A stretch of 32,000 nucleotides of DNA, taken from assembly GCA_963528875.1 (NCBI GenBank), contig CAURWT010000002.1, positions 120,001 through 152,000 of the forward strand. Reading direction: 5' to 3'. Under the pieces are notes generated by a model. It was not told where the DNA came from and did not search any database. It saw only the letters and a program-made list of their open reading frames with translations. A program made the position numbers and the translations under genes. The stretch comes from an uncultured Candidatus Saccharimonas sp. (GTDB lineage: Bacteria > Patescibacteriota > Saccharimonadia > Saccharimonadales > Saccharimonadaceae). Positions 7,824 to 26,219 of this stretch are shown here, piece by piece. Numbering within the stretch: the first letter of the stretch is position 1; each line of letters opens with the position of its first letter.

Positions 7824-8218
7824 AAATTTAAAGCCACCTAACTGATGATTAAACTTTTTGTTTTTGTTATATTTTTGTTTTAAGATTCATTATAAGTTTA
7901 GCTTTTTGCTTAGCGTATAGCCAATCATATTGCTGTTTGAGAGACTTATATATGAGGTGGAGTTTTATTTTGGGAGGTTTTAAAATGTGCTCCAGCTATT
8001 ATTTTAACCTGGTTACTGGAATTTGTCCAGCTGTTTAATCACCAGATAGTTGACCTTAAACTAAAAACTACATCTATTTTAACGTGCTTTTATTTTTGTT
8101 TAGTGGTTTTTCTGTTTGTTTCTGTCGTTGCCACTGATTTAAGTTTACCGCGAATTATTTTTTTTCGCAAGACCTATTTTTGACAAACACGCAAGTTTAG
8201 AAATAATTTTTTATATAT

Positions 8219-8276
8219 TTTTCCACAACTATGTGGAAAAGCAAGCCTTTTAACAGATATTTCCTACTTTTCCACA
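8219..8276. promoter_or_regulatory. Three DnaA-box-like 9-mers (TTTTCCACA), two of them forming a perfect 9-4-9 palindrome
   Basis: TTTTCCACA at 8219-8227, TGTGGAAAA at 8232-8240 and TTTTCCACA at 8268-8276. Each matches the TTATCCACA consensus at 8 of 9 positions. There is no flanking U-tract, so this is not a terminator. Confidence 0.35.
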
Positions 8277-8305
8277 ATGCTTGTGTTTAATTGTTGAAAA
8301 CTAAT

Positions 8306-8584
8306 TTATCGTGGCAATAATGCACTAATTAATGCAGTATCATATTTTGTTGTAGATATTAAAATCAAGTATGTCACAAATACAACAAGATTGATTGCAA
8401 GTGAAAGAACCAAAACTGCACTTCGAAAATCTTGCGTAACTTGGTCAACCACTACTGTTCCATCTTCAGCAATAATAATTCCATTATTTGTAAGCAAAGT
8501 TTTAGCTTTTTTAATATCTTGCTCTTTTTTTGAAACTTTTGTAGTTTTTTTAGCAATTTTTGTTTCTGTTTGTTTTTTTGTCAT
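8306..8584 (-). CDS. Small hypothetical membrane protein (Lys-rich N-terminus, C-terminal TM helix)
   Basis: 92-aa ORF reading MTKKQTETKIAKKTTKVSKKEQDIKK...AVLVLSLAINLVVFVTYLILI. Weak AAGGAAA SD. No family recognised. Confidence 0.45.
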   Translation of the reverse strand: MTKKQTETKIAKKTTKVSKKEQDIKKAKTLLTNNGIIIAEDGTVVVDQVTQDFRSAVLVLSLAINLVVFVTYLILISTTKYDTALISALLPR

Positions 8585-8834
8585 TTTTTTCCTTTTTTTG
8601 TTTATTTGACTTATTTGATCTTAATTGTTTTTTATGTTTATATAATAGCATAAGTTTTTTAAAAAGTCAATAGCTTTTATGCTAAATTATTTTAAAATAT
8701 TTCAAAACCCTCTGCCAACAATTTGTTCGCTTGACATTGTATAGTTTTATTTTATTTTATTTTTTGACATTTCACTATTTTATTGTTTTCATATTTTTAA
8801 ACCTTTAGCCTCACTATTCCATGAAAAATGATTA

Positions 8835-8869
8835 AAACTAAAAGACTCTCGAATTTTCGAAAGCCTTTT
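8835..8869 (-). terminator. Rho-independent terminator of the helicase operon
   Basis: Minus-strand RNA reads GGCUUUCGA-AAAU-UCGAGAGUC (9 bp including G-U pairs) followed by UUUUAGUUUU. Confidence 0.5.
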
Positions 8870-8910
8870 GCACACAATTGATTTTAAAACAAATTAACTA
8901 AAAATCTACT

Positions 8911-10458
8911 TTATATAGCATCTTCACCAAAGAGTTTTTTTATGCGAGCTTCAATTGAACCTTTATGGCGACCGAGCTCTTTACTTAATTTAGCAATTAA
9001 ATCTGCGTCAATTTTTCCATTTGCAAAAACCATTTCTTGCAATTTCGAATCATCAACAAGTCTCCACGCACGATACGCATTTGGATATTCTTTCCGCATT
9101 TTTTCAAGCTTTTCAGCCCAAGTTGTTTTTGATGGTTGCACCTCAACAATTTCGCCCGCTTCACGCTTTTTAGCAACTTCTTTTAAGTGCGAAAAATGCT
9201 TTTCGGCTTTTAAGCTTTCATTTTTAAGTCTAAAATCAATCTTTTGCGCCTCTTCGCTAACCATCAAAGCGGTGCGGTTTATTCCAAGTAAATAGAGTTT
9301 ATCAAGAGAGCGAACACGAGAAAGCGCCACATACCCCATTCCTTCAGAAAAGGCTTTTCGAAGGTCGATTCGAGCGGCATCGAGTGTCATCCCTTGGCTT
9401 TTATGAACTGTAATTGCATATGCTAGTCGGAGTGGAATTTGCATAATACTTGCTCGCTTTTTTTCGCCATCACGCATTTCCCAAGTTTCTGGCGCCATTG
9501 TAATAATTTTACCATTTCGAAATTGAACAATCGGGTAATCTGTTAATCTTTCAAAATCAATAACTTCACCAATTGAACCGTTCACATATTGGCGGTTTTG
9601 GGCATTTTTTACCGCCATCACTAAAGCACCTTTTTTGAGTCGCAAGAGTTCTGGTGCAAGAACGGATTTCTGTAAAGTTTCAACGTAGTTTTTTGCACCA
9701 GTTGTGGTTTGCGCAAAATGAAACTCCTCGCCTTCGAGCTCGGCAAGCTTTTGCTCATTAATTTTATCAACATCGATATTAGTAGTGTGGAGTTCGGTTA
9801 AGTTTTTCAAAAAATCATCACTTTCAAAATTAGGCTCAATATCGATACGATCAAGCAAACTTTGAGCGTGTTTTCGGCGTAAATCATCCGCTCTAAGTGC
9901 GTTTAAAATTTCAGATAGTTCATCATTTTTTTGGCGGTGATTTTCCTCAAGATAGCAAATCGTAAATTCGGCAAGCTTCCAGGCGTTCGAATAAATTGCA
10001 AAACCACCAGTTCGCCCACCAGTTCGGTTAATTGGCGGTAGCTGAAAAAAATCACCACATAAAATTACCTGAATTCCACCAAAAGGTTTATCATTTTGGC
10101 GAATTGTGCGACAAATTTCTTCAACCATGTCTAGTCGAAAATCGTGCAACATAGAGATTTCGTCAATCACCAGAATATCTGTATTTTTAATAATTTCAGC
10201 CCGCGTTTTTGGGAATTTTTCAAAAAATTTTCTCGAAAGATAATCATAAATTCCAATTCCGCTCCAAGCGTGAATGGTGTTTCCTCCAAGATGAGTTGCC
10301 GCTAAACCAGTAGTGGCCGTAACGCTAACCTTTTTTCCAGAATTTTTTGCAAGCTTAATAAACTGATTAAGCGTGAAAGTTTTTCCGCTTCCTGCCGCAC
10401 CAGTTAAAAAAACATTTTCGCCTGAGAGCATAATCTCTAATGCTAACGCTTGCTTCAT
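8911..10458 (-). CDS. SF1B Pif1/RecD-family DNA helicase with a C-terminal HTH-like tail
   Basis: Walker A GAAGSGKTF, TATTGLAA, ILVIDEISM, ILCGDFFQLPP, YAITVHKSQGMTLD and YVALSRV motifs. The C-terminal ..NAYRAWRLVDDSKLQEM....IAKLSKELGRHKGSIEARIKKL tail is typical of bacterial Pif1-like helicases. Confidence 0.85.
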   Translation of the reverse strand: MKQALALEIMLSGENVFLTGAAGSGKTFTLNQFIKLAKNSGKKVSVTATTGLAATHLGGNTIHAWSGIGIYDYLSRKFFEKFPKTRAEIIKNTDILVIDEISMLHDFRLDMVEEICRTIRQNDKPFGGIQVILCGDFFQLPPINRTGGRTGGFAIYSNAWKLAEFTICYLEENHRQKNDELSEILNALRADDLRRKHAQSLLDRIDIEPNFESDDFLKNLTELHTTNIDVDKINEQKLAELEGEEFHFAQTTTGAKNYVETLQKSVLAPELLRLKKGALVMAVKNAQNRQYVNGSIGEVIDFERLTDYPIVQFRNGKIITMAPETWEMRDGEKKRASIMQIPLRLAYAITVHKSQGMTLDAARIDLRKAFSEGMGYVALSRVRSLDKLYLLGINRTALMVSEEAQKIDFRLKNESLKAEKHFSHLKEVAKKREAGEIVEVQPSKTTWAEKLEKMRKEYPNAYRAWRLVDDSKLQEMVFANGKIDADLIAKLSKELGRHKGSIEARIKKLFGEDAI

Positions 10459-10467
10459 TTTCGAAAA

Positions 10468-11565
10468 CTACTCGCTTCCGATCATTCGTGGCGGTTCACC
10501 TTCTGGGCCGTCGAGCAACTTTTTGCTTTTAATTTCATAACGGCGACCAGTGATTTCGCTCAAGATGTAATCTTCATTAATTAAATTCACGAACATATCT
10601 AAATCGTTACTATCCATAATAATGATTGCACCGTTGTCGTCCGTCATTAATTCAAGCTGCATTTCATCGGCGTATTCAACCACTTTTTCTTGCGAAATTT
10701 CACCAATTTCATCCATTTTTTGTAATTTCGTAGCAGCTTTTTTATGCTCGCGAACCAAAGTTTGCAAATCTAAACCATCAGGAAAACTCAATTTATACTT
10801 TCTTTCGATTTCCAAAACTTTTTTATCAGCTAAAACTTGTTTTTTATAATCGTAATTAAAGAGTTTTTCAAATTTTCCTTGATTGAAAATAAAAATATCA
10901 TTATTTACGATCAAAACTTGATTATCTGGCTGGATTTTTAAACCAAATTCAGGCTCAAATGCACCAAATTTACCATTTCGAAATTCCCAAGCTGTTGCTC
11001 CGCGCAAAACCTGCCCTTGCATAATTTGTTTAGCAACATAAAATTTCTCGCCTTTCGAATTTGTAAACCTTGCCAAAATTCCTTTAATCCGCTTAAAATC
11101 ATGTTCGTTTTCATTAAATTCCACAATGTCGGAATATTGCGTTTCAATTATATTTAATAGCGCATTAGCGTGTTGAACTTTTTGTAGTTCAGTTTTTAAA
11201 AGCACATCTTTGCCCGCGCCACCATCCATTTCATAGTCTCGCACGCTCAAACCAGTTCCTGCACCCATATTTACGAAATTAATCATATCAAACAAAAACA
11301 ACGGCTTAATTTGCGAGTTCAATTCGCTTGAAAAACTAGTTGTAAAAGGCACAAAATTTTTATTAAATAAGAAAAATTCTACATCAAGCTCATTTTTGAT
11401 TCCATCAGTCAAATTTGCCCACTGAAAAATATCAGTTGATTCATCTTTTTTCGAATTTTCAGCTTCTTCAAAATTTTGTTCTTCATTTAAAATTTCAGCC
11501 TTATTTTCTGTCAGGTTTTCAGTATTTTTAATCTCAGCGTTTTCAGTTCTAATATCTTCTTCCAT
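10468..11565 (-). CDS. Hypothetical protein with an acidic disordered N-terminus; possibly KwaB/DUF4868-like (unverified)
   Basis: 365-aa ORF ending 10 bp before the helicase start. Residues 1-45 are Glu/Asn-rich. No catalytic motif recognised. The central/C-terminal pattern (..FYVAKQI..VLIVNNDIFIFNQGKFEKLFNYDYKK..) recalls DUF4868 from memory only. Confidence 0.7.
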   Translation of the reverse strand: MEEDIRTENAEIKNTENLTENKAEILNEEQNFEEAENSKKDESTDIFQWANLTDGIKNELDVEFFLFNKNFVPFTTSFSSELNSQIKPLFLFDMINFVNMGAGTGLSVRDYEMDGGAGKDVLLKTELQKVQHANALLNIIETQYSDIVEFNENEHDFKRIKGILARFTNSKGEKFYVAKQIMQGQVLRGATAWEFRNGKFGAFEPEFGLKIQPDNQVLIVNNDIFIFNQGKFEKLFNYDYKKQVLADKKVLEIERKYKLSFPDGLDLQTLVREHKKAATKLQKMDEIGEISQEKVVEYADEMQLELMTDDNGAIIIMDSNDLDMFVNLINEDYILSEITGRRYEIKSKKLLDGPEGEPPRMIGSE

Positions 11566-11573
11566 ATAGTTCT

Positions 11574-11582
11574 ATTATACCA
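11574..11582 (-). promoter_or_regulatory. Extended -10 TGGTATAAT, 8 nt from the ATG of the 365-aa gene (leaderless type)
   Basis: The minus strand reads TGGTATAAT-AGAACTAT-ATGGAAGAAG. Confidence 0.6.
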
Positions 11583-11604
11583 CAGCCTAGACAGCAAGTC
11601 CAAG
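11574..11604 (-). repeat. Promoter-module direct repeat, copy 1
   Basis: Plus strand reads attataccacagcctagacagcaagtccaag. It differs from copy 2 at two bases plus a 1-nt indel. Confidence 0.8.
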
Positions 11605-11674
11605 ACAACAAAACTAATATGCGACACCTTTATTAAACCTAAAAAATAATCATAGTTGCATATATACTATGATT

Positions 11675-11704
11675 ATTATACCACAGCTCAGACAGCAGTC
11701 CAAG
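11675..11704 (-). repeat. Promoter-module direct repeat, copy 2 (probably a decayed duplicate)
   Basis: Plus strand reads attataccacagctcagacagcagtccaag. On the minus strand it is followed by an 8-bp hairpin (11649-11673) plus a U-tract, and only a 3-codon ORF. Confidence 0.8.
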
Positions 11705-11735
11705 TAACCATTATAAACTATACCTATAACTCATC

Positions 11736-11760
11736 AAAACGCCCTTTTATAGGGCGTTTT
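11736..11760 (-). terminator. Terminator hairpin after the PHP-ATPase gene
   Basis: AAAACGCCC-ttttata-GGGCGTTTT, a perfect 9-bp stem with A/T runs on both sides, 13 bp after the stop codon. Confidence 0.7.
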
Positions 11761-11772
11761 GACTTTGATAGA

Positions 11773-14358
11773 TTATAATTCTTCTTGTAAGTCATATTTA
11801 CTTTCTCGTTTAAGGAAAGCTATTCGACCTCCTTCGAGAATATCACAAACGTGTTCTTTGATGCTATATCTCTGCAGTAAAAATTGGCTTTTCTCGTCCT
11901 TGACTATACTTTCCAAGGCACCACTTACATAATCGAAGACTTTACCATTTTTATTTTTGGAAACATCCGATTCTTGATTTGCAACAATAACATTCTCACA
12001 ATCTCCTGCAACAACAATATTAGGGTTATGAGTAACAAGAATAATCTGACGATTTAATTTCGTCTTTTTTATATAAGCCGTTAATTCATTATATATAGCA
12101 CGATTATCCAGACTATCTTCTGGCTGGTCAATTAAGACTGGAATTTTACTATCTGAGAAATCTAAAATCAGTTTCAGAACGATAAATGCTTTCTTGCCGG
12201 GTGACATTTGTTCAAATTTATCCTTCTGATATTCGATGTCAAAACGATAAGAATAAAAATTTTTGCCGAAAAAATACTCAATATGAGATAACTTATCTCT
12301 ATTACCATTAAAAGTTAAGGTGTCGTCTTCAAAAATCTTATCAACTACGGTATCGAAATTCTCTTCCAAATTATCAATAAAATCCTGTTTAGCGTGGCCT
12401 CTCGCATTGATATAATCAAACTCAGAATGTAAATCATTTAATGAAAAATTGATAGTTATCTTTAAACCATCTTTCTCTGATATGTCAAAAGAATCTTGCA
12501 GTTCGGTTCTAAAAATTGAGTATTGTTTATACTTTAGGATAATATCATTTTTAATTCTATTTTCTTTATCAGTAAGGGATTTTAATCTACTATTAAATTT
12601 ATCAATCTTAGATAGAATTTCATTTTCCGACTTAATTGACGCATCTAGCTTGACAACTTCATTATTACTCTCTAAATATTGAGTACACTTCTGAAATAAC
12701 TTGTCATTCTTTATAGTATCTATCTTTTCCTCAATACTATGAATTGTTTTAGTTACGTTAGACTTAAGTTTTTCTACTTTATCTTTAAATTCTTTCCGTA
12801 TATTTTCATTCAAAGATTCAACGATAATGTCCAACTCATTTTGGAGAAATTCAGAAGGTTCATCAAATCTATCACAACGAAGCTCTACATCCGAGATAAA
12901 TAATTCAGCTATATAATTCAAATCAGACTGATGAGAGGTTTTTTTCAATATATTTATTTTTAACTCCTCATTCATTTTATCGAATGATTCTCGCTCAATA
13001 TCGGTTATAGAACCATTTTTTAATAATTTTTGCTTTTTGTTTTCATAGATTTTAATTCTATCTAAAGTCGCCTGTCTTTCTTCTTCAGGCTTAACTAATT
13101 CATTCTGTGAACGCTTAGTCTCCTTATACTCATGAAATAAATGTCGAATTTCACTTTGTAAGTTACTACACTTTTGGTCATATATTTTTATTGCTGAATC
13201 CATTCCCTTGGATTGTATTATATCTCCAACCAAATCCTTCAGTTTGCTATTATCTTTAGCTAAAGAAAACATATACTCTTGAGGTATGTAATGAATTTTT
13301 CTAGAATCATCCTCTTTGCCGTCTCTCCAAACAACACGAAAATTATCCAAGTCTTTAAAATAATAGCTTCCCTCATCTATGCTATTCCCTAATTTTTTAG
13401 CAATCGAATTTAATAATGTTGATTTTCCTGTAGACCGACCTCCGATAATAGTATTTAGATTTTCAGATAGATAAATTTCTTCTCCTGGATAACCAATTCT
13501 ATCAATCACAAGCTCATCTTTTTCAAGTAATGGCTTTTCTTTTGATAAACTAATACGATATTCAGGTTCATATTTTATCTGTCTTAATCCATCGAAGGTT
13601 AGATCAGCCTTTATCCAAGAATACTTCATTCCTATTTGCTCCAATGAATGAGCGTCTGAAGATTGGAGTAAGGGTTTAATATATTTTGGATGATTCAGCC
13701 AGTACTCTCTATCTTTGAAAGTATTATCATGAGAACATTTAGTATCTTGACAGTCATCGGGATTATCGCAGCTAGAATGAAGTATGAAGTCTGAATTTCG
13801 ACAAACATCTTCATAGATAGAACTAATTTTCACTCTCGCATTTCCGTGCCCCCTCGACAAAAATCCTTTTAAATATCTGCCATTTAATTCTTCATCGCCT
13901 TCCAGAGTAGATATAAGGCTATTAAAAGGGACACTTGCCGAATTGTCGATTTCACTCTTTGTCAACCTATTAAAGGATTTATCAGTATTACCAATTTTTG
14001 CCTTTAAATTGGCTAATAAATTTTTGATAATTTGATTTTCTATACTATTGTCAAAAATAACATGATAATCAAAAAACTGATTTGAGTTATTCGTATTAGT
14101 GAGTCTAACCTCAAGGTTTAAAAATGTAACAATACCTGCAGAATTTAGCTTATCCTTCAATATAAAATCTTCATCTTTAAAATTGAAATAATTAGTTAAA
14201 CCAACTGCTGAAATTCCCTCATCCTTAAGTTTCTTGATAAACTGTTCAATATCGGGACTACCGTCTGCCAAATGTTCAAAATTATTATTCAATATCGTAT
14301 ATGGTGAATGTATATGTAAATCCCATTTTCTAAATTCCGAACCTCTATTAACTGTCAT
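11773..14358 (-). CDS. PHP-domain phosphoesterase fused to a Rad50/SbcC-like ABC ATPase; PplA-like (Gao_Ppl) / TrlF-like putative defence protein
   Basis: N-terminal PHP signatures (RKWDLHIHSPYT, ..SSDAHSLEQIG). Walker A IIGGRSTGKSTLLN. About 250 aa of coiled coil. Then SPGKKAFIVL.., Walker B PVLIDQPEDSLD and H-loop LVTHNPN. Start set to the ATG at 14358, preceded by GGAGGTTATT. The in-frame ATG at 14370 is an alternative. Confidence 0.85.
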   Translation of the reverse strand: MTVNRGSEFRKWDLHIHSPYTILNNNFEHLADGSPDIEQFIKKLKDEGISAVGLTNYFNFKDEDFILKDKLNSAGIVTFLNLEVRLTNTNNSNQFFDYHVIFDNSIENQIIKNLLANLKAKIGNTDKSFNRLTKSEIDNSASVPFNSLISTLEGDEELNGRYLKGFLSRGHGNARVKISSIYEDVCRNSDFILHSSCDNPDDCQDTKCSHDNTFKDREYWLNHPKYIKPLLQSSDAHSLEQIGMKYSWIKADLTFDGLRQIKYEPEYRISLSKEKPLLEKDELVIDRIGYPGEEIYLSENLNTIIGGRSTGKSTLLNSIAKKLGNSIDEGSYYFKDLDNFRVVWRDGKEDDSRKIHYIPQEYMFSLAKDNSKLKDLVGDIIQSKGMDSAIKIYDQKCSNLQSEIRHLFHEYKETKRSQNELVKPEEERQATLDRIKIYENKKQKLLKNGSITDIERESFDKMNEELKINILKKTSHQSDLNYIAELFISDVELRCDRFDEPSEFLQNELDIIVESLNENIRKEFKDKVEKLKSNVTKTIHSIEEKIDTIKNDKLFQKCTQYLESNNEVVKLDASIKSENEILSKIDKFNSRLKSLTDKENRIKNDIILKYKQYSIFRTELQDSFDISEKDGLKITINFSLNDLHSEFDYINARGHAKQDFIDNLEENFDTVVDKIFEDDTLTFNGNRDKLSHIEYFFGKNFYSYRFDIEYQKDKFEQMSPGKKAFIVLKLILDFSDSKIPVLIDQPEDSLDNRAIYNELTAYIKKTKLNRQIILVTHNPNIVVAGDCENVIVANQESDVSKNKNGKVFDYVSGALESIVKDEKSQFLLQRYSIKEHVCDILEGGRIAFLKRESKYDLQEEL

Positions 14359-14370
14359 AATAACCTCCAT

Positions 14371-14638
14371 ATATAGTTCTATAAGATTCTCAGAGTTTCC
14401 TTAACCCTATCCTTACTAATCGTCTCATTGAAGAACGGTAAGCCTACAATACGATAACGGCACACCTTCCACCATAAAGGTGTCATTTTGTGCCAGAAGG
14501 TGTTCCAGTTCTTGTTTCATATAAAGTTTACCTTTCAGTTATATTTTAGCGAAGGGCTGATAGGATTCCTTTATTATGAATATAATAAAGAAAGGTTACC
14601 CTTCGGGTTTTTCAAATTTTTCTGATTCTATTATACCA
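14371..14638 (-). promoter_or_regulatory. TGGTATAAT promoter (14630-14638) plus a structured 5' leader of about 260 nt for the PHP-ATPase gene
   Basis: Only promoter-like element upstream of the gene. The leader holds a 12-bp AU hairpin (about 14566-14593) enclosed by CGAAGGG/CCCTTCG pairing. It also has mutually exclusive pairings among ACACCTT, ACACCTT and AAGGTGT copies at 14459-14507. Confidence 0.5.
14425..14520 (-). CDS. Possible 31-aa upstream ORF (MKQELEHLLAQNDTFMVEGVPLSYCRLTVLQ)
   Basis: ATG preceded by GAAAGGTAA about 10 nt upstream; TGA stop. It spans the alternative-pairing region of the leader. No homology recognised. Confidence 0.25.
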   Translation of the reverse strand: MKQELEHLLAQNDTFMVEGVPLSYCRLTVLQ

Positions 14639-14770
14639 TAAACATTAAAAAATATTTATATCTGATTAAATATTAGTCGAATATCAGAAAAAACTCACCC
14701 GTCAATAGCTCGTTATGCTTATAGAATAAGACAAATAATCTCTTTAAAAATTGCTGATTTTAACTTTTTA

Positions 14771-14779
14771 TGATACAAT
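14771..14779 (+). promoter_or_regulatory. Extended -10 TGATACAAT, 6 nt from the methyltransferase ATG (leaderless type)
   Basis: The plus strand reads tTGATACAATtaaagaATG. Confidence 0.55.
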
Positions 14780-14785
14780 TAAAGA

Positions 14786-16012
14786 ATGAAAATTGCAATT
14801 TTAGGGCGTCAGCCAAGTATCGGGATTGCCGAACTCGAAAGTGTTTTTGGCGGCGATAAAATTCGCGTACTGGGTGATTACGCCTGTCTTATAGAAACTG
14901 AAAAACTCAATGTTTCGCATTTTGGCTCAATTTTAAAAACAGGCCAAGTTGTTTTTGAAGTCAATTCAACGGATTGGCGAGATGTTTCAAAAAAAATAAC
15001 CAAAATTTTTGAACACGATTTTGCGGATTTTAGCGGAAAAATCACACTAGGAATTTCAACCTATGGCTTAAAAACTCGGGCAAACGAAGTTTCGAAAACT
15101 GGAACAATTATTAAACAAAAGCTTAAAAATCACGGCGTTTCAGTGCGAATAATCCCTTCAAAAAATACTGAGCTTTCAACCGCAATTTCGCATAATAATA
15201 AGCTTGGCTTAAGCGAGAAAAAAATCGAAATTTTAGTAGTTCGTGGCGGCAAAAAAACAATTATTGCTTTAAGTGAAGGTGCACAAAATATCACAAACTA
15301 CGCTAGACGTGATCAAAACAGACCAAAGCGCGATGCTTTTGTTGGGATGCTGCCACCAAAACTCGCTCAAACAATGATCAATCTCGGTGTTGGCGAAAAT
15401 CAGCCACAGATTCAAGCACTTTTCGGTAAAAAAACTTTCGAAAATCCAGAAATCCTCGATCCTTTTTGCGGAACTGGCACAGTTATTCAAGAAGCACTTC
15501 TAAAAGGTTTTAAAGCAAACGGGACGGATTTGAGCGAAAAGATGGTGGAGTTTTCGAAAGAAAATAGTGATTGGTTTGTGCGGGAGTTTAAACCGCATGG
15601 TGAACTTGGAGAAATTTACGAAGCTGATGCTACAATTGAAAAATGGAGTTTTGCAAAAAAACTTTCAAGCGTAGTTTGCGAGACTTACTTAGGGCAACCA
15701 TTTTCTGCTCCACCTTCACCCAAAAAATTAGCAGAAGTTCGCGAAAATTGCAACCGTATAATTTCGAACTTTTTGAAGAATTTATCGCAGCAAATTCCAG
15801 AAGGCACACAGATTTGTATTGCTGTTCCTGCTTGGAAAACGCAAAATGGTGATTTTTCTCATCTTCCACTTATTGACTTTTTAAATGAGCTGGGTTATAA
15901 TAGAAAGGAATTTATGCGCGTTAAACCACAAGATCTAATATATTATCGCGAAGATCAAGTTGTGGCGCGTGAATTATTAGTACTAATAAGGAGTAAAAAT
16001 GTCACACGTTAA
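14786..16012 (+). CDS. Putative SAM-dependent RNA/DNA methyltransferase (UPF0020/THUMP-associated type)
   Basis: 408 aa with motif I ILDPFCGTGTVIQEA and a downstream ..CETYLGQPF.. segment in the (D/N)PPY position. The N-terminal roughly 190 aa form an unassigned domain. Confidence 0.65.
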   Translation: MKIAILGRQPSIGIAELESVFGGDKIRVLGDYACLIETEKLNVSHFGSILKTGQVVFEVNSTDWRDVSKKITKIFEHDFADFSGKITLGISTYGLKTRANEVSKTGTIIKQKLKNHGVSVRIIPSKNTELSTAISHNNKLGLSEKKIEILVVRGGKKTIIALSEGAQNITNYARRDQNRPKRDAFVGMLPPKLAQTMINLGVGENQPQIQALFGKKTFENPEILDPFCGTGTVIQEALLKGFKANGTDLSEKMVEFSKENSDWFVREFKPHGELGEIYEADATIEKWSFAKKLSSVVCETYLGQPFSAPPSPKKLAEVRENCNRIISNFLKNLSQQIPEGTQICIAVPAWKTQNGDFSHLPLIDFLNELGYNRKEFMRVKPQDLIYYREDQVVARELLVLIRSKNVTR

Positions 16013-16277
16013 ATCGGGTGGTTCAAGTAAGAACATCCACAACAACGCCGGTCAACGCCTTGGTGTTAAACGATTTGGTGGCCAAAAAGTTAACGAGGGC
16101 GAAGTTCTCGTTCGACAGACTGGTGCAACTAAATTGGCTGGCGAAGGAACTTACATGAGCCGGAATTTCACGATTCACGCCAAACAAGACGGTGTTGTGA
16201 AATTTAAACAAATCCAAAAACGCAAATTTACTGGCAAAACAGAACGACGCACAGTTGTAGAAGTTGTTGCTGCGTAA
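15999..16277 (+). CDS. rpmA: 50S ribosomal protein L27
   Basis: MSHVKSGGSSKNIHNNAGQRLGVKRFGGQKV..GEVLVRQTG.. matches the conserved L27 N-terminus. SD AAGGAG. Overlaps the upstream gene by 14 nt. Confidence 0.95.
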   Translation: MSHVKSGGSSKNIHNNAGQRLGVKRFGGQKVNEGEVLVRQTGATKLAGEGTYMSRNFTIHAKQDGVVKFKQIQKRKFTGKTERRTVVEVVAA

Positions 16278-16284
16278 TTGCAAT

Positions 16285-16320
16285 AAAAAATGAGCCTTTC
16301 GAAAGATTGACTCATTTTTT
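16285..16320. terminator. Bidirectional terminator between convergent rpmA and a response-regulator gene
   Basis: AAAAAATGAG...CTCATTTTTT is a perfect 10-bp stem. The loop contains the palindrome CTTTCGAAAG. Confidence 0.7.
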
Positions 16321-16341
16321 ATTTTACTCATTTTAGACCTG

Positions 16342-16731
16342 CTAGTAATCTTCACCAATGCCCAAATGTTCACGAACCTTCTCAATCACATCTGAAATCA
16401 TCACCTGAGATTTAACAAGATATTCATCAACGCCAAGTTTTTCAGCTCGCTCACGATCACTTTCTTGGCTTAAAGCGGTAAGCATAATAATTTGCAGATT
16501 CATTGTTTCAGGAGTATTTCGAAGAATATCTAACACATCAAAGCCCGAAATTTTTGGCATCATTGCATCAAGAATCATTAAATCTGGACGATATTTTAAA
16601 GCTGCAGTCAACGCTTGCTCGCCGTCATGAACTTCCATAACCTCAAAATCCTCCATTTCAAGCCTTGCACGATATACGCTAGCCAAAACCTCATCGTCTT
16701 CAACTAATAAGATCTTTTTTCTTGCTTCCAT
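16342..16731 (-). CDS. Receiver-only (CheY-like) response regulator
   Basis: KILLVEDDE.., ..DLMILDAMMPKISGF.., ..IIMLTA.. and ..K motifs with no output domain. Start trimmed to the ATG at 16731, preceded by GGAGGGAAA. Confidence 0.85.
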   Translation of the reverse strand: MEARKKILLVEDDEVLASVYRARLEMEDFEVMEVHDGEQALTAALKYRPDLMILDAMMPKISGFDVLDILRNTPETMNLQIIMLTALSQESDRERAEKLGVDEYLVKSQVMISDVIEKVREHLGIGEDY

Positions 16732-16755
16732 TTTCCCTCCTAAATAGTTCTGCAA

Positions 16756-17937
16756 TTATTTTAAAATTTCTAACGCCTTGTTTTTTTGAATATCGTTTAA
16801 TAAATAACTTTCACCCTTTGGTGCGCTCACTTTAATATCTGGCGAAATTCCATTATTCGAAATATTTTTCCCACTTGGCGTAAACCATTTCGCAATCGTA
16901 ACTTTCAATAAAGCTCCATTTGGCATATCAATAGTAGTTTGAACACTTCCCTTACCGTAAGATTTTTCACCAACAATTTGAGCAGCTTTATGCTCTTTTA
17001 AAGCGCCCGCAACGATTTCGCTCGCACTAGCCGAGGAGCCGTCAAGCAAAATTACAGTTTTAATACCTTTCAAAGGATTGTCACCAGTCGCTCGAATCTC
17101 CTCAATCGTTTTTGAACCAGTTTTTTCACTAACGATCAAAGCATTTTTTTCAAGCCACAAGCTTGCAACAGTTTTTGCAGCTTGAACATATCCGCCGCCG
17201 TTTCCACGCAAGTCTAAAATAACTTTTGAAATTCCCTCATTTTTAATTTCTTCGGCATATTTTTTCGCCAAAACACCAGTTTCACTATCAAATCGATAAA
17301 TTGAAAGTGTTGCGACACCATCTTTCTTCGAGAGTTCCACACTTGGATTTTCAATTTTCGCACGCGTAACTGAGAATTCTTTCTTTTCATTGCCACGAAC
17401 TACACCAATCTTAACAGTTGTTCCAGCATCTCCACGAATTTTTTTGCTAATTTCAGAAACATTTTCTTTCGAGACATCTTCACCGTTAACTTTCGAAATT
17501 ACATCACCTACTAAAATTCCTGAACTTTCGGCTGGATTTTTAGCTAAAACTCGCACAACTTTAACGGAATCACCATCTTTTGCGAGCTCAACACCAATTC
17601 CTGTTCCAACATCACCACTTAAGCTTTTATTGAATTCTTCAGCCTCTTTAGAAGTCATATACTCCGTGTATTTGTCTCCTACCGCTTCAACTAGACCTTT
17701 CGAAGCACCATCGATAATTTTTTGTTTATCAATTTCGCCATCAAAATTTGAGGCTAAAGCTTGATAAGTTTTTTCGACATTCGAAAAATCTATTCTTTCA
17801 ACCTTTTTCAGTCCAAAAACTGGCGCGATTAAATTTCTAATATCATCTATTCTTGAGCCACCCGCAAAGCCTAAAACCAGCATAAAAACTGAAACCAAAA
17901 CTAGCGTTGAGCGTTCAACTTTTTTACCTCTATCCAT
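16756..17937 (-). CDS. ctpA: S41 family C-terminal processing peptidase with a PDZ domain
   Basis: N-terminal TM anchor, PDZ (..GIGVEL..V..V..PA..SGILVGDVI..VNG), LDLRGNGGG and DGSSASASEIVAGAL (catalytic Ser). Start trimmed to the ATG at 17937, 7 nt from a -10 element. Confidence 0.88.
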   Translation of the reverse strand: MDRGKKVERSTLVLVSVFMLVLGFAGGSRIDDIRNLIAPVFGLKKVERIDFSNVEKTYQALASNFDGEIDKQKIIDGASKGLVEAVGDKYTEYMTSKEAEEFNKSLSGDVGTGIGVELAKDGDSVKVVRVLAKNPAESSGILVGDVISKVNGEDVSKENVSEISKKIRGDAGTTVKIGVVRGNEKKEFSVTRAKIENPSVELSKKDGVATLSIYRFDSETGVLAKKYAEEIKNEGISKVILDLRGNGGGYVQAAKTVASLWLEKNALIVSEKTGSKTIEEIRATGDNPLKGIKTVILLDGSSASASEIVAGALKEHKAAQIVGEKSYGKGSVQTTIDMPNGALLKVTIAKWFTPSGKNISNNGISPDIKVSAPKGESYLLNDIQKNKALEILK

Positions 17938-17944
17938 AAATTCC

Positions 17945-17953
17945 ATTATATCA
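17945..17953 (-). promoter_or_regulatory. Extended -10 TGATATAAT, 7 nt from the ctpA ATG (leaderless type)
   Basis: The minus strand reads TGATATAAT-GGAATTT-ATGGAT. Confidence 0.55.
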
Positions 17954-18056
17954 CAAAAGCACAAGCATAACAAAAAAATAAGTTCTGAAAGATAAGTTTA
18001 ATATTTGGTGCCTTAAAATAATTTGAATTTGCACTGTTTTTGTGCTATATATTATT

Positions 18057-18800
18057 TTATTTCTTCAAAAGATTTCGCAATATAAGCTCAGGATTTTCTA
18101 AAGTAAGTTTTGTAATTTGATAGCTTTCTGAATCGTGATAATCAATTTCTTGAATAGATTCATTAAAATTGTATATTTTTGAATTTGGTAAAGCTGTAAT
18201 AATAGGGGAATGAGTAGCTATGATGAATTGAGCTCCGCTTTGCGTTAGTTCATATATCTTTGCCATAAAGGCTAATTGATTTTGTGGCGAAAGAGCAGCT
18301 TCTGGTTCATCTAAGATATATAATCCATTAGGTTTAAATTTATTTAAAACCAGACCTAAGAATGCCTGACCGTGTGAGCGTTCGTGAGGGATTCCGCCGT
18401 AAGAATCTAACTTATATCCCATAGCAATCTCTCTACTGTATATATCTTCCAGATAAGTAGCTACATTATAAAAACTTTCAGCCCTCAAGAAAAATCCATC
18501 CCGTGGTCGCTTAGCCCCTCTAACAATCTGAATATATTCACTAAGGTTTGAATGCGTTTCTTTAGTTGCGAAATTAAAATTAACAGTTCCTCCCTCAGGA
18601 TTAAATCCTAAAGAAACCGCAATACCTTCAAGTAAAGTTGATTTACCGCTCCCATTTTCGCCCATAAAAAAGGTAATAGGAGAAGACAAATTTAAATAAT
18701 CAATGGAATTTATTGATGGAATTTCAGAGTAGTATTTCCCTTTAGGTATAGGTTTTATCCTTATTTCTTTAACAAAAACATCCATTACATCCCCTTTCAT
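18057..18800 (-). CDS. Stand-alone small ABC-type (AAA_15/21-like) ATPase with no partner gene
   Basis: Walker A GENGSGKSTLLEGI, signature-like SHGQ, Walker B LYILDEPEAALS and H-loop IATHSP. No TM or nuclease domain. Alternative start is the ATG at 18785, preceded by AAAGGGGA. Confidence 0.8.
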   Translation of the reverse strand: MKGDVMDVFVKEIRIKPIPKGKYYSEIPSINSIDYLNLSSPITFFMGENGSGKSTLLEGIAVSLGFNPEGGTVNFNFATKETHSNLSEYIQIVRGAKRPRDGFFLRAESFYNVATYLEDIYSREIAMGYKLDSYGGIPHERSHGQAFLGLVLNKFKPNGLYILDEPEAALSPQNQLAFMAKIYELTQSGAQFIIATHSPIITALPNSKIYNFNESIQEIDYHDSESYQITKLTLENPELILRNLLKK

Positions 18801-18805
18801 TCTTT

Positions 18806-18814
18806 ATTATATCA
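18806..18814 (-). promoter_or_regulatory. Extended -10 TGATATAAT, 5 nt from the first ATG of the ATPase ORF
   Basis: The minus strand reads TGATATAAT-AAAGA-ATG. The spacing is so short that the 18785 ATG may be the one actually used. Confidence 0.45.
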
Positions 18815-18950
18815 TGATAAAGAGAAACTTTTAATAATAAAAATTTATTGATAGCTTATTTTGATAAAAATCTATCCAAAACTTTATAAAGACACCCTAC
18901 CTCGTGGAATTTTTAAATGAGCACTTTTAGTTAATCGCTAAAAATAACAA

Positions 18951-18984
18951 ATAATAAAAAGCGAGTCAGTTAAACTGGCTCGCT
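18951..18984 (-). terminator. Rho-independent terminator after the CHAP hydrolase gene
   Basis: Minus-strand RNA reads AGCGAGCCAG-UUUAA-CUGACUCGCU (10 bp, one mismatch) followed by UUUUUAUUAU. Confidence 0.65.
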
Positions 18985-18989
18985 AAATA

Positions 18990-20174
18990 TTAATCGAAAT
19001 ACACATATGTATCATAAGTGCTTGCAGGTACGGTCATTGTTGAGAATTGACCCCATCTACCATTAACAAAGTAATTATACTGCGAAATCGTAACCATATT
19101 ACCATTCACAGCCTCAACCCAAACAATGTGACCATATTGACCGCCGCTCATTACGCCGAATGATCCAACTTTTGGAGTACTTCCAGTTCGGAATCCTGCT
19201 CGCCGTGCGCTAGCCGGCACATCTTTAGCATTACCCCAATATGCAGCGTTGATACCTTTTGTTGCACGCAATTTCCATGCAACATAGCTCACGCATTGGC
19301 GACAACCATAGCCATAGCCATCTGTTCCATTTCCATCTGCACCACCATAGCTTACCGCATTTGCATCAACAAAACAGTTTGCATCATTCCAGGGGTAGCT
19401 ACTTGTTCCAGCAATAGCTTGCGGAAGTGATCCACTACCAGCCGCCCGGGCTGCACGCAAAATTTGAGCCTGAATAATATCTTGCTGCTGTTTTTGAAGA
19501 GCTGCTTTTTGCGAATTTCGCTCGTTCGCATATTTTGTATATTCTGCTTCATCATTTTTAGTTTGAGCAATCAATTCATTCTGCTGGCGAATTTTTTCTT
19601 GAAGCGCAGATTCAGCTTGTTGCTGATTAGTTAAAGCAACTTTAACTTCATCTCGCTGTTTTTCAAGTTCAGCTTTTGCTCGCTTAATACTATCAACCTT
19701 TTCAACCAACTGGTTCTTAACTGCACTCTGATATTCAAAATTATCAAGCGCTTTCGAAAGATTGTTACTCCCTGCAATCCGCTCGATTGGTGTTATGTCA
19801 TCTTCAATTGACATTGCCGCCAAAATAGAACCCAACGCATTTCGATTTCGTTCAATATTTTCTTCGTTATTTTTAATTTCAAGCTGCAGCTTTTCGTATT
19901 GTTTTTGATATATTGCAATTTGCGATTGAATTGTGGCTTTTTCATTTTCAATACCACTAAGCTCATTTTGAAGTGTTTGTGCTTTATTTCTAAGATCACT
20001 CGCACGAGATTCCGCACCGCTAATTTGAGATTCCAGCGCTTTAATTTCTTTATCGAGCTGTTCAACGCTCTTCTCGGCTTCAGCACTTTTTGGTAAAGCC
20101 GCAATAATACCAGCAGCAACAACTCCAAGAGAAATTGCGCCATTTATCACTAAATTCTTCTTAATCTTTTTCAT
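18990..20174 (-). CDS. PcsB-like secreted coiled-coil protein with a C-terminal CHAP peptidoglycan hydrolase domain
   Basis: Signal/TM (LVINGAISLGVVAAGIIAAL), about 230 aa of heptad-rich coiled coil, then CHAP (..YGCRQCVSYVAWKL.., ..YGHIVWVEAV..). Start trimmed from a TTG at 20225 to the ATG at 20174. Lies directly downstream of ftsEX. Confidence 0.8.
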   Translation of the reverse strand: MKKIKKNLVINGAISLGVVAAGIIAALPKSAEAEKSVEQLDKEIKALESQISGAESRASDLRNKAQTLQNELSGIENEKATIQSQIAIYQKQYEKLQLEIKNNEENIERNRNALGSILAAMSIEDDITPIERIAGSNNLSKALDNFEYQSAVKNQLVEKVDSIKRAKAELEKQRDEVKVALTNQQQAESALQEKIRQQNELIAQTKNDEAEYTKYANERNSQKAALQKQQQDIIQAQILRAARAAGSGSLPQAIAGTSSYPWNDANCFVDANAVSYGGADGNGTDGYGYGCRQCVSYVAWKLRATKGINAAYWGNAKDVPASARRAGFRTGSTPKVGSFGVMSGGQYGHIVWVEAVNGNMVTISQYNYFVNGRWGQFSTMTVPASTYDTYVYFD

Positions 20175-20213
20175 AGTTGTTTTTCTTTTTATTTTAAATT
20201 TATTCTTAATTAG

Positions 20214-20222
20214 ATTATACCA
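20214..20222 (-). promoter_or_regulatory. Extended -10 TGGTATAAT promoter for the CHAP hydrolase gene (about 33-nt leader)
   Basis: Plus-strand attatacca lies in the ftsX / CHAP-gene spacer. Confidence 0.5.
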
Positions 20223-20250
20223 CAATATTTTTTCGAAAACAAGCCCCTTT

Positions 20251-21282
20251 CTATATTTTTAGATATTTTCTTGTTGCCGTAAATGCCGAGACAACACCAA
20301 TAAACGAACCAACAACTATCAGTCCCAGAACAACCAAAAATCCATAAATTTGCAAGAATGAAATTACTGGCGAAATGATAATTCCATAAGCCTCGAGCCG
20401 AGATTTCGAAAGAAAAATTATAGTATAGCCAATTATTGAAGCTAGAATTGCTGCAATTGTTCCGCAAATTATAGCTTCAACCAAAAATGGCCCAGCAATA
20501 AAACTCTTATTAGCACCGATCAATTTCATCATATAAATCTCTTCTCGACGGTTAAAAATAGCCATTCGAATTGTATTAAAAATGATTAAACTAGCAATGA
20601 TTACAAAAATTGAGCCAGCTAAAATTCCAACTTTTTCAGCAAAATTAATTGTATTTGATATATTTTTAATAATCTCATTTCGATCGCTCGCATATGTTGG
20701 CGGATGATCTGGATCGAGATTCGATTTAATCAACTTATTATTTTCAACAAGATTTTTTAGCTCGGTTGAATTAGAAATATCCACAAGTTTAACATTGAAA
20801 ATTCCAAAAAATTCATTATTCGATTCAATTAAGGCTTTTCGAATATCCGCATCAGCCGAATTTTTTCGAGCAAATCTATCACGTGCCTCTTGTGGTGAAG
20901 TATATGTTATATCTGTAACTGAAGGTAAATCTTTAATTGCTTTTTGCATCTTTAAAACATCAGAATTTAAAACACCTTTTTTAAGGTAGATAGACATATC
21001 AACTTTATTTTTGATGTCATCAACTGTATCCATCAAAATTGAACGCGCAAGGAGTGAACCAAAAATAATAACCAAAGTAACAGTCATCACAGCAGTCGCA
21101 GCAACTGAAAGCCAAGCATTTCGAATAAAGCTATTTGCACCATATTTCGTAATTCGCCAAAGAGTTAAAGTTTTGCGGCGGCGCTGTTTCTGTTGCATAA
21201 TAATTTTTGAATTTTGTTTTTTTCTACCTTGTTGCACTTGAGAGCCTTTAATTTTATGATGTTTTAGATTTTCCTCTCTCAT
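20251..21282 (-). CDS. ftsX: Cell-division ABC transporter permease-like protein FtsX
   Basis: Basic N-terminus, TM1, a large extracytoplasmic loop and three C-terminal TMs (..MKLIGANKSFIAGPFLVEA..). The start overlaps the ftsE stop (TAATG). Confidence 0.85.
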   Translation of the reverse strand: MREENLKHHKIKGSQVQQGRKKQNSKIIMQQKQRRRKTLTLWRITKYGANSFIRNAWLSVAATAVMTVTLVIIFGSLLARSILMDTVDDIKNKVDMSIYLKKGVLNSDVLKMQKAIKDLPSVTDITYTSPQEARDRFARKNSADADIRKALIESNNEFFGIFNVKLVDISNSTELKNLVENNKLIKSNLDPDHPPTYASDRNEIIKNISNTINFAEKVGILAGSIFVIIASLIIFNTIRMAIFNRREEIYMMKLIGANKSFIAGPFLVEAIICGTIAAILASIIGYTIIFLSKSRLEAYGIIISPVISFLQIYGFLVVLGLIVVGSFIGVVSAFTATRKYLKI

Positions 21283-21965
21283 TATTGTCTATACTCCCCT
21301 TGCGATTGGTCGTGGGTAATTTTTCCACCATTTAAGGTAATTACACGACGTTTAAGTTTATTTACAATTTCAACATTGTGTGTAGTTAGAACAACCGTTG
21401 TTCCGTAGTTGTTAATTTTTTCAAGCAATCTAATAATATCCCAACTGTGCTTTGGGTCAAGATTCCCCGTTGGTTCATCAGCAATTAGAATTTTTGGCTG
21501 GCGAGCAATTGCGCGGGCGATTGCCACGCGTTGTCTTTCACCACCACTTAACTGGTGCGGAAAATTTCCCTCTTTTCCTTCAAGGCCAACAAGTTTAATA
21601 ACTTTCGGAACAGTCGCTTTAATCTCATGATTTGTCATTCCGGCAATTTCAAGCGCAAAAGCTACATTTTCGAAAACAGTTCGATTTGGCAAAAGCTTAA
21701 AATCTTGAAAAATCACACCAATTCGGCGCCGCAAAAGTGGAACATCCTTATCTCGCAATTTATCATAATCGATTCCACCAACAACAATTTTACCGCTGGT
21801 TTGTTTTTCTTCACGAGTGAGCATTTTTAAAAGTGAGGATTTCCCCGCACCACTCGTTCCAACCAAAATAACAAACTCTTTTGGCTTAATATGAAGGCTA
21901 ACCCTGTTAATCGCAGGAGTTTTTGAATTACCATAAACTTTTGTCACACGATCTAATAATATCAT
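21282..21965 (-). CDS. ftsE: Cell-division ATP-binding protein FtsE
   Basis: [28 protein letters not shown] and [12 protein letters not shown] motifs. A GTG at 21968 is also possible as the start. Confidence 0.95.
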
Positions 21966-21973
21966 CACTTTTT

Positions 21974-21982
21974 ATTATACCA
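21974..21982 (-). promoter_or_regulatory. Extended -10 TGGTATAAT, 8 nt from the ftsE ATG (leaderless type)
   Basis: The minus strand reads TGGTATAAT-AAAAAGTG-ATGATA. Confidence 0.6.
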
Positions 21983-22051
21983 GCTTTTTTCAAAGTGTTC
22001 AAGCTTATTTAAAAATTTTAACTAAAATCACCCTTTCGAGTGATTTTTGAG

Positions 22052-22609
22052 TTATTTTTTAGCTTTTTTCTTTCGAAGAAGCTGTGCTGTATAGTTTTCT
22101 GGTGAATCTGCAGTTTTATCGATTCCTAGAACTTCTAGAACATCCCACAACTCTTGGCGAATTCCATCTGGATTATCACCTTTTTTCACTTCTCGTTCAA
22201 GTTTAATGAAAGTCCCCAATCCTTCAACATCATCTAAAAAGAAAGTAGTATCCTCAACTTGAAGCTTTTGACGGTTTCGAAGCACCTCAACTTTCATTTC
22301 GAACCCAAGTTGCTGAACAATATGTGCCGTTTCAGAATAATTTAAAACTGGCGTTTCGTGAATTAAATCAACATTTTCAGCATCAATATGGCGCTTTTGA
22401 ATTAACTGATACCAAGGTTTGCGTTTTGGATCAATAATCTCTGTTCGAATCATTAACTTTGGTAAATTTCTGCTTGGCTGAAAACCTCGTGGTAAAAACA
22501 CGCGATCATTCTGAAAAATAACTCGCCCAAAATCATGCCCCGTATCCGTTATTCTTTTAATAAAATCAACCTTATTTTTAATTTTTGCCTTTACGATAAC
22601 TTTCTTCAT
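22052..22609 (-). CDS. CYTH-like (class IV adenylate cyclase / triphosphate tunnel) domain protein
   Basis: 185 aa with size and a ..LGTFIKLEREV.. C-terminal strand resembling CyaB/CYTH. The N-terminal ExExK motif is replaced by VKAKIK. Confidence 0.5.
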   Translation of the reverse strand: MKKVIVKAKIKNKVDFIKRITDTGHDFGRVIFQNDRVFLPRGFQPSRNLPKLMIRTEIIDPKRKPWYQLIQKRHIDAENVDLIHETPVLNYSETAHIVQQLGFEMKVEVLRNRQKLQVEDTTFFLDDVEGLGTFIKLEREVKKGDNPDGIRQELWDVLEVLGIDKTADSPENYTAQLLRKKKAKK

Positions 22610-22615
22610 GATTCG

Positions 22616-22624
22616 ATTATACCA
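22616..22624 (-). promoter_or_regulatory. Extended -10 TGGTATAAT, 6 nt from the CYTH-gene ATG (leaderless type)
   Basis: The minus strand reads TGGTATAAT-CGAATC-ATGAAG. It lies in a 21-bp intergenic gap. Confidence 0.6.
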
Positions 22625-22630
22625 TATTAT

Positions 22631-24780: not shown

Positions 24781-24805
24781 TTTTCCTCCGTATAACCTTT
24801 TAACT

Positions 24806-24814
24806 ATTATACCA
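24806..24814 (-). promoter_or_regulatory. Extended -10 TGGTATAAT promoter for glyQS (short leader containing GGAGG)
   Basis: The minus strand reads TGGTATAAT-agttaaaaggttatacGGAGGaaaa-ATG. Confidence 0.6.
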
Positions 24815-24846
24815 AAAAAGCTCCCGTTTTTCGAGAGCTTTTTGTT
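24814..24846 (-). terminator. Terminator hairpin after the surface-protein gene
   Basis: AAAAAGCTCCCG-ttttt-CGAGAGCTTTTT: an 8-bp stem with one mismatch, flanked by A and T runs. Confidence 0.6.
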
Positions 24847-24861
24847 TAAATTGCTATAAAA

Positions 24862-26166: not shown

Positions 26167-26210
26167 TTTTTCTCCCTTTTTAATTATATAAACACTTATG
26201 CTTAAAATTT

Positions 26211-26219
26211 ATTATACCA
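26211..26219 (-). promoter_or_regulatory. Extended -10 TGGTATAAT promoter for the surface-protein gene (about 40-nt leader)
   Basis: Plus-strand attatacca lies upstream of the SD-containing leader. Confidence 0.5.

Follow-up and report, generated by a model that had tools for sequence, protein, structure and literature searches.

In the Kiwa anti-phage system, the effector KwaB acts together with KwaA, which accounts for membrane tethering and sensing. KwaB binds single- and double-stranded DNA non-specifically and stalls forks, and six of its residues (N134, R142, R167, D169, K187 and R233) contact DNA (PMC11785009). Here we describe a locus in which a KwaB-family (DUF4868) protein is encoded without KwaA and in an operon with a Pif1-family DNA helicase. 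The locus lies on a 32,000-nucleotide stretch of an uncultured Candidatus Saccharimonas sp. (contig CAURWT010000002.1, positions 120,001 to 152,000), hereafter the window, to which all coordinates refer unless another contig is named. Whereas Kiwa is driven by horizontal gene transfer, about 54% of it being associated with mobile elements, this pair is vertically inherited at a fixed locus. Such inheritance across a bacterial group makes it look like a DNA-maintenance module rather than mobile defence. An earlier note, made from the letters of this DNA, had proposed the pairing as a new architecture, and it is indeed real and apparently undescribed: we found in the literature no description of a KwaB-like protein paired with a helicase, of KwaB-like proteins without KwaA or, apart from automatic DUF4868 annotation, of such proteins in Saccharibacteria.

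Three other groups of described systems are close enough for comparison. The helicase shares its core motifs, signature and 2B/SH3 domain with yeast Pif1/Rrm3, human PIF1, Bacteroides Pif1 and T4 Dda. It differs from known bacterial Pif1 proteins, whose physiological role is still open (PMC3113762, PMC9964779), in being encoded beside a KwaB-like protein, a kind of partner not described for them, and in a C-terminal tail of about 100 residues that is uncharacterised. Hachiman HamAB and similar systems are, likewise, two-gene operons of a helicase and a protein devoid of a catalytic motif, but the helicase here is a superfamily 1B (SF1B) Pif1 and not an SF2 HamB-type enzyme, and its distribution is unlike that of a defence island. 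No match to Hachiman components was obtained with PADLOC, whose matches to the helicase are only generic RecD/Pif1-core matches within much larger proteins. Finally, in phage modules of Red/RecET type, KwaB-like homologues are found just downstream of exonuclease, RecT/ERF and SSB genes, whereas the window pair is chromosomal, with no recombinase or SSB beside it and no prophage.

Results

A KwaB-family protein without KwaA

The upstream gene of the pair (10468-11565, minus strand) encodes a protein of 365 aa, whose likeness to DUF4868 had been put forward in the earlier note. Profile and structure searches bear this out. Pfam PF16162 (KwaB/DUF4868) matches it at E=5e-11 with 43.4 bits (cut-off 26.3), full-length KwaB models of PADLOC match residues 68-350, one of them (E=2e-12) spanning residues 119-350, and a 43-sequence profile retrieves solved KwaB from the PDB (E=7e-17, chain residues 32-316). 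When its AlphaFold2 model (mean predicted local distance difference test score 86.9, predicted TM-score 0.78) was compared with the PDB by Foldseek, solved KwaB structures were the sole significant matches (E=1.8e-13, about 325 aligned columns). The protein has the full two-domain architecture seen in Kiwa (PDB 9mtn, 9mrx, 9nyu, 9o0i; PMC11785009), a Rossmann-like N-terminal domain and the DUF4868 C-terminal domain, here preceded by a disordered acidic tail (about residues 1-44). Identity in the Foldseek alignments is 13-16% and the TM-score only 0.40-0.47, which suggests that the modelled inter-domain pose differs from that of solved KwaB. The disordered N-terminus noticed earlier is also recovered: residues 1-40 are predicted to be disordered and are acidic (isoelectric point 4.1), and among orthologues this tail varies in length or is absent.

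Two of the DNA-contacting residues of KwaB have basic counterparts in the alignment (R142 corresponds to R188 and R167 to K210), and the invariant lysines K179, K231 and K280 adjoin contact positions that are not conserved. Features that set the window protein apart from KwaB are its acidic tail and a GAxTG motif; in E. coli KwaB the aligned segment reads NNEDLTSPL and lacks this motif. This loop (residues 101-105, GAGTG) lies in the Rossmann-like domain and is invariant in the Saccharibacterial clade; its last glycine, G105, is kept by 90% or more of the sequences in the broader alignment A2. This loop may bind a ligand or phosphate and may be specific to the KwaA-less branch.

As had been proposed from the window alone, no KwaA-like partner accompanies the protein: a tblastn search of the window with Saccharibacterial KwaA gives E>=0.17, and no multi-transmembrane open reading frame (ORF) of about 190 aa lies near the pair. 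Lacking KwaA, the pair has neither its membrane tethering nor its sensing. Among 219 collected loci KwaA was found in only one, there beside a different KwaB paralogue. That locus (L139, 1265-9080; on the same contig as L091), from an environmental Saccharibacterium, carries canonical KwaA (PF28043) and KwaB, a zeta-toxin-like kinase and other cargo. These genes are flanked by that for a tRNA synthetase and by another KwaB-family gene, which is without KwaA and lies 5 kb from the canonical pair. Canonical Kiwa thus occurs alongside the KwaA-less type, and accessory cargo is accepted in this part of the chromosome.

These data bear on whether the locus could be a KwaA-less, Kiwa-like anti-phage or anti-plasmid system, in which invading DNA would be bound by the KwaB-like protein, with Pif1 as sensor or co-effector, the whole having become fixed in the chromosome. 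Full-length homology to the Kiwa effector speaks for it, as does the label "Kiwa anti-phage protein KwaB-like" that NCBI gives to some homologues; moreover, pairs of a helicase and a partner are common among defence systems. On the other hand, NF041623, the NCBIfam equivalog model for KwaB, matches the protein with only 52.9 bits, far under its curated cut-off of 200; the protein is thus a member of the family but not an equivalog of the characterised effector. In addition, the one Saccharibacterium that possesses canonical KwaA and KwaB keeps a separate KwaA-less paralogue, which indicates that the two types are distinct. Together with the genomic data given below, this makes a defence system of this kind unlikely.

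A Pif1-family helicase in the same operon

The downstream gene (8911-10458, minus strand) encodes a protein of 515 aa that is, judging by its sequence, unambiguously a Pif1-family helicase. It is matched by PF05970 (PIF1, E=8e-39), and PF21530 (Pif1_2B_dom, 25.2 bits, cut-off 23.9) places the 2B/SH3-like domain at residues 258-302. In the PDB profile search yeast Pif1 ranks best (E=8e-73), followed by human PIF1 and Bacteroides Pif1, the E-values of the three ranging from 8e-73 to 3e-49. The complete SF1B motif set claimed earlier is present: GAAGSGKT (Walker A), DEISM (Walker B), the Pif1 signature GDFFQLPPI, HKSQG and YVALSR all align to yeast Pif1. The helicase core, 2B/SH3 domain included, covers about residues 2-415; for the C-terminal 100 aa or so no match was found, and the Pif1 tail of the orthologue from Southlakia has been assigned a tri-helical ECOD fold (PMC10633639). 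An assignment to RecD2 or RecD was rejected, the scores against TIGR01448 (84.9 bits, cut-off 500) and TIGR01447 (61.5 bits, cut-off 310) being far too low.

In the window the two genes form an operon, at the coordinates and on the strand given by the earlier note. The gap had been put at 10 bp; the tight spacing stands, but the actual spacer (TTTTCGAAA, 10459-10467, minus strand) has 9 nt, with neither promoter nor terminator. Upstream of the KwaB-like gene, the promoter scan identified a sigma-70-type promoter (11574-11602, minus strand) composed of TGGACT, a 17-nt spacing and an extended -10 element TG-n-TATAAT. Only 8 nt separate the -10 element from the ATG (11565) and no Shine-Dalgarno sequence is present. 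As the same TGnTATAAT-8nt-ATG arrangement is kept in three related loci (L006, L008 and L017), the KwaB-like transcript appears to be leaderless, in agreement with the earlier proposal. The proposed terminator is likewise found: it starts 41 nt past the Pif1 stop codon (8830-8869, minus strand) and consists of a 13-pair hairpin (8869-8840) followed by a T-rich tail. No known RNA family was detected with Rfam within 8000-15000.

The two ORFs share a reading frame (TAG TTT TCG AAA ATG), and with the stop codon and three further codons between them (10459-10470), read-through of the stop would fuse them. Identical tight spacing occurs in the closest relatives (L006-L024) and different spacing in other clades, so the shared frame is probably incidental. 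A promoter-like element of about 30 nt, CTTGGACT(T)GCTGTCTxxGCTGTGGTATAAT, occurs in two copies on the minus strand (11705-11640 and 11604-11574) and nowhere else in the window. Downstream of the first copy come a hairpin (ATAATCATAGT/ACTATGATTAT) and a T-run, so that a transcript started there could be terminated after a very short distance; the leaderless KwaB-like mRNA is driven by the second.

Linkage across Saccharibacteria

Homologues of the KwaB-like protein in the database number 2,623, and those ranked highest are all from Saccharibacteria or Patescibacteria. When sequences are clustered at 50% identity, only about 210 clusters match at E<=1e-3, and canonical KwaB-like proteins stand at about 22-24% identity. 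Using alignment A1, we scanned species-representative genomes, found relatives in 415 of them and retrieved 80 loci, picked by similarity to the query. The window itself comes from a host-associated Saccharibacterium, whose nearest relatives are Ca. Saccharimonas and Nanogingivalaceae metagenome-assembled genomes. When the 80 loci were combined with L001-L005, L086-L088 and L139, a Pif1 orthologue was found on the same strand and at most 2.5 kb away in 74 of 77 informative Saccharibacterial loci. Of these 74 loci, 30 have a gap of at most 30 nt between the two genes, 7 have one of 31-100 nt, 25 one of 101-1000 nt and 12 one of more than 1 kb. An independent metagenome sample, covering a clade 39-46% identical to the window KwaB-like protein, gave a same-strand Pif1 nearby in 46/55 loci, with gaps up to 2.7 kb. 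Thus, the two genes are linked in other genomes as well.

The pair lies beside RsmH-FtsL-FtsI of the dcw (cell-division) cluster, RsmH and FtsI being found further downstream. Its surroundings also include genes of DNA metabolism: RNase HI is encoded less than 1 kb upstream in 54/129 informative loci, and RecO and ExoVII belong to the same syntenic block. RNase HI was not found in the window. Adjacency of the pair tolerates rearrangement. In L086, L088 and Southlakia (SEML1_0264/0265) the order is reversed, Pif1 coming ahead of the KwaB-like gene with adjacency intact, and in the window's own clade the upstream synteny is rearranged while the pair stays together. In L002 the upstream order is L27, methyltransferase, a further segment, RecO, aminoacyl-tRNA synthetase, SpoU, CYTH and the KwaB-like gene; in the window (16000-27000 compared), as in L006, the KwaB-like gene has the methyltransferase and L27 genes as its immediate neighbours, and the CYTH (22052-22609) and RecO (26270-26941) genes of the window are 10-15 kb from it. 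Upstream synteny thus varies even between host-associated relatives. In L003, a 340-aa ORF downstream of Pif1 was considered as a further DUF4868 paralogue and rejected, as it has no KwaB similarity; the order in Southlakia is simply swapped.

Could the association be a matter of synteny, with Pif1 a general accessory helicase, the KwaB-like protein serving an unrelated function and the two acting independently? The whole region from RNase H to dcw is syntenic, and in about half of the loci unrelated genes, often on the opposite strand, lie between the two. Furthermore, a solo KwaB-like lineage resides in other conserved contexts, among CHAP/LysM, CorA and SDR genes (L145, L147). Against such independence, adjacency survives both the order swap in some clades and the upstream rearrangement, and the gap is at most 100 nt in 37/74 loci. 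An unrelated phage-type element described below (L089) has the pair 1 nt apart, with both proteins closest to those of Saccharibacteria; it is above all this element and the swapped-order clades that weaken the explanation, which we consider improbable. A conserved third partner was also looked for among the inserted genes and rejected, because the inserts are heterogeneous (pilin-like, HD, prephenate dehydratase/dehydrogenase, LssY_C, DUF4419) and in many cases run opposite to the pair.

The same survey weighs against a KwaA-less defence system. The locus is fixed and vertically inherited over divergent clades, and no defence neighbours were detected in more than 120 related loci with Pif1, the genes inserted between the pair being metabolic or pilin-like and not defence-related. 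This is largely the fixed core placement, beside RsmH-FtsL-FtsI across Saccharibacteria and without defence neighbours, that the earlier note had named as speaking against its own proposal. Nor are the loci that lack Pif1 explained as canonical Kiwa: this holds only for the L091/L139 paralogue, and L144-L147 are without KwaA.

Selection and dispensability

In comparisons with close relatives, the KwaB-like gene has a ratio of non-synonymous to synonymous substitution rates (dN/dS) of 0.024-0.061 and Pif1 one of 0.053-0.082, dS saturating where the sequences compared are more distant. The housekeeping neighbours FtsI (0.033-0.101) and RsmH (0.067-0.084) have similar values. The pair is therefore under purifying selection like its housekeeping neighbours and bears no arms-race signature; these low ratios, along with a host-like oligonucleotide content, also argue against the defence alternative.

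In transposon sequencing of Southlakia epibionticum, Pif1 (K15255) and the adjacent DUF4868 gene were both scored NE/NE/NE, i.e. non-essential at each of three time points, with flat read counts, and RecA and RecF showed late growth defects in the same experiment (PMC10633639, Table S1). Because the Southlakia annotation lists no RecB, AddA or RecD (PMC10633639), Pif1 may be the sole RecD-like helicase of this genome. Dispensability in culture is consistent with an accessory maintenance function. That both orthologues are dispensable in phage-free co-culture is also what a defence system would predict.

Homologues in phages and mobile elements

Relatives of the KwaB-like protein recur in phage-type recombination modules. 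In L089, the genes for a ParB-like protein, RecT, a RecE-like exonuclease, an exonuclease and a helix-turn-helix protein precede the KwaB-like gene, and a Dda/Pif1-like helicase, matching a Dda-like PHROG, follows 1 nt downstream; the module continues with a HerA/FtsK-like ATPase and an RNA ligase. The KwaB-like protein and helicase of this element are 33-35% and 46% identical to those of the window, respectively, and both are specifically related to the window pair. Scanning metagenomes with P0141 yielded only chromosomal Saccharibacterial loci and no close relatives of the L089 element, and viral scans with P0141 and P0136 gave no relatives.

A homologue about 41% identical is encoded on 43 IMG/VR contigs (L093-L135), mostly from related phages of about 30 kb, many of them oral. 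These phages are temperate, with a GC content of 44-49%, and no Pif1 or dcw genes lie near their KwaB-like gene; indeed, most phage homologues are without Pif1, as would be expected if the two functions were unrelated. In the temperate phage L099, integrase, exonuclease, RecT, SSB and small ORFs precede the KwaB-family gene (7980-8966 of that IMG/VR contig), and terminase and portal genes follow; its product has no PHROG match at E<=0.001. SSB is encoded about 1.1 kb upstream of the KwaB-like gene in 27/43 viral loci. Similarly, ERF and an RNase T-type exonuclease come before the KwaB-like gene in L136, and another phage-like contig has the homologue beside a PD-(D/E)xK-FtsK protein. In siphovirus genomes, the place after exonuclease, annealase and SSB is usually taken by replisome-organiser or helicase-loading genes. 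No homologue was found by tblastn in GenBank phage records or PLSDB plasmids. The phage homologues could be exclusion genes, which would suit a defence role, but they are situated inside recombination modules and not at typical moron sites.

A further alternative is that the chromosomal pair is a domesticated phage recombination or replication pair acting on foreign or incoming DNA, for instance in transformation uptake or in the control of prophage or plasmid replication. Phage and chromosomal clades interleave in a rough neighbour-joining tree, which is only suggestive as it has long branches and no bootstrap. Between Saccharibacterial clades, the identity of the KwaB-like protein falls from 72% to 44-49% and that of Pif1 stays near 60%, a difference that hints at phage-derived replacement. 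In addition, Saccharibacteria are naturally competent (PMC10633639). Set against this, no prophage genes flank the chromosomal pair and it has no link to competence genes, and we regard domestication as the least probable of the explanations considered here.

A strain-specific insertion and other features of the window

The earlier note had drawn part of its defence argument from a "PplA-like" gene next to the operon. This 865-aa neighbour (11773-14370, with its own terminator at 11760-11735), composed of PHP and ABC-type ATPase parts, is a TrlF-family AAA-like ATPase, matching NCBIfam NF045780 over its full length at 486 bits (cut-off 350). Identity with Ppl was rejected: NF042955 scores 95 bits against a cut-off of 1000, and the Ppl models of PADLOC and NCBIfam match only the C-terminal ATPase part. 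Comparison with L006, L008 and L009 shows that the gene belongs to a strain-specific insertion of 3,043 bp (11583-14625). The KwaB-like promoter was hit in its -10 element, and 13 bp (TGGTATAATAGAA) match at the two junctions. The TrlF-family gene is absent from 80/80 related genome loci, even where the relatives' proteins are 97% identical, and was not found in the 86-219 locus sets either. It lacks TTCGAA over its 2.6 kb and has the lowest GC content (30.6%), and the whole cassette is free of the site, so it looks like a recent horizontal acquisition. As a defence companion of the pair the gene is not conserved. The upstream region has taken defence-type cargo twice, as TrlF/Ppl-like gene in the window and as KwaA, KwaB and zeta toxin in L139, which is a point in favour of the defence alternative.

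The palindromic hexamer TTCGAA occurs 96 times in the 32 kb of the window (3.0/kb), a roughly nine-fold excess over the estimate of about 0.34/kb from base composition. The pair contains exactly 8 sites, i.e. 3.0/kb, so the host-like density reported for it is confirmed. The excess could reflect a methylation, restriction or uptake-related signal, or else an effect at the level of codons or dipeptides.

Between Pif1 and RsmH, where MraZ is found in other Saccharibacteria, the window encodes a lysine-rich protein of 92 aa with one C-terminal transmembrane segment (8306-8584, minus strand). It has its own promoter-like site (8670-8642) and no family match, and its conservation (64-99% identity) is confined to the host-associated clade.

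Discussion

Our favoured reading, held with moderate confidence, is that this KwaB-fold protein is DNA-binding and works with Pif1 in replication, recombination or repair. By homology with KwaB, whose dimer channel binds single- and double-stranded DNA and stalls forks, it would bind DNA at replication forks or recombination intermediates. There it could recruit or position Pif1, a predicted 5'-3' helicase, or mark substrates that Pif1 clears. The pair would then serve genome maintenance, in replication, recombination or repair, as a dispensable module and would not be a mobile anti-phage system. A partnership of the two proteins is suggested by the occurrence of the pair in L089, outside the chromosomal synteny, and by their adjacency despite swapped order. 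The neighbouring RNase HI, RecO and ExoVII genes and the recombination context of the phage homologues are counted in favour of the same reading. The defence framing of the earlier note, in turn, fits poorly with the fixed locus, vertical inheritance, low dN/dS and lack of a conserved defence neighbour, and the better supported reading is the one that it gave as a caveat, a module of replication or repair.

Several observations weigh against this reading. The only characterised member of the family is an anti-phage effector, and non-essentiality in phage-free culture is equally expected of a defence gene. The whole KwaB-like protein is acidic (isoelectric point 4.7), and four of the six DNA-contacting residues of KwaB are not conserved one-to-one. 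Conservation looks inflated in the genome-locus set, since these loci were chosen by similarity to the query. Owing to the intervening, often opposite-strand genes in about half of the loci, co-transcription is clade-specific; nine to twelve loci (including L045, L051, L139 and L144-L147) have a KwaB-like gene with no Pif1 nearby, and most viral homologues lack an adjacent one. DNA binding by this protein, its interaction with Pif1 and the process that they would serve are themselves inferences.

A broader and more tentative idea is that the KwaB fold could primarily be a DNA-binding accessory of SF1B helicases of Pif1/Dda type in replication and recombination, used by phages within their Exo-annealase-SSB modules and fixed as class-wide partner of the sole Saccharibacterial Pif1, with the Kiwa effector as a co-opted, membrane-tethered derivative, or the reverse. 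If true, this would explain fork stalling by KwaB and give bacterial Pif1 its first dedicated partner.

The locus also illustrates that matches to defence-family models, here KwaB and Ppl, need to be weighed in their genomic context before a defence system is annotated. So far, KwaB has been known solely as effector within a defence complex that is anchored in the membrane. A large KwaA-less branch, which is vertically inherited throughout a bacterial class with reduced genomes and recurs in the recombination modules of phages, points towards an origin or function outside defence. This branch would offer a simpler, soluble system in which to study how the KwaB fold engages DNA and forks. The roles and partners of bacterial Pif1 are a long-standing question, for which the pair provides a candidate partner. 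As both genes are non-essential in the genetically tractable Southlakia epibionticum, knock-outs and their phenotyping are feasible.

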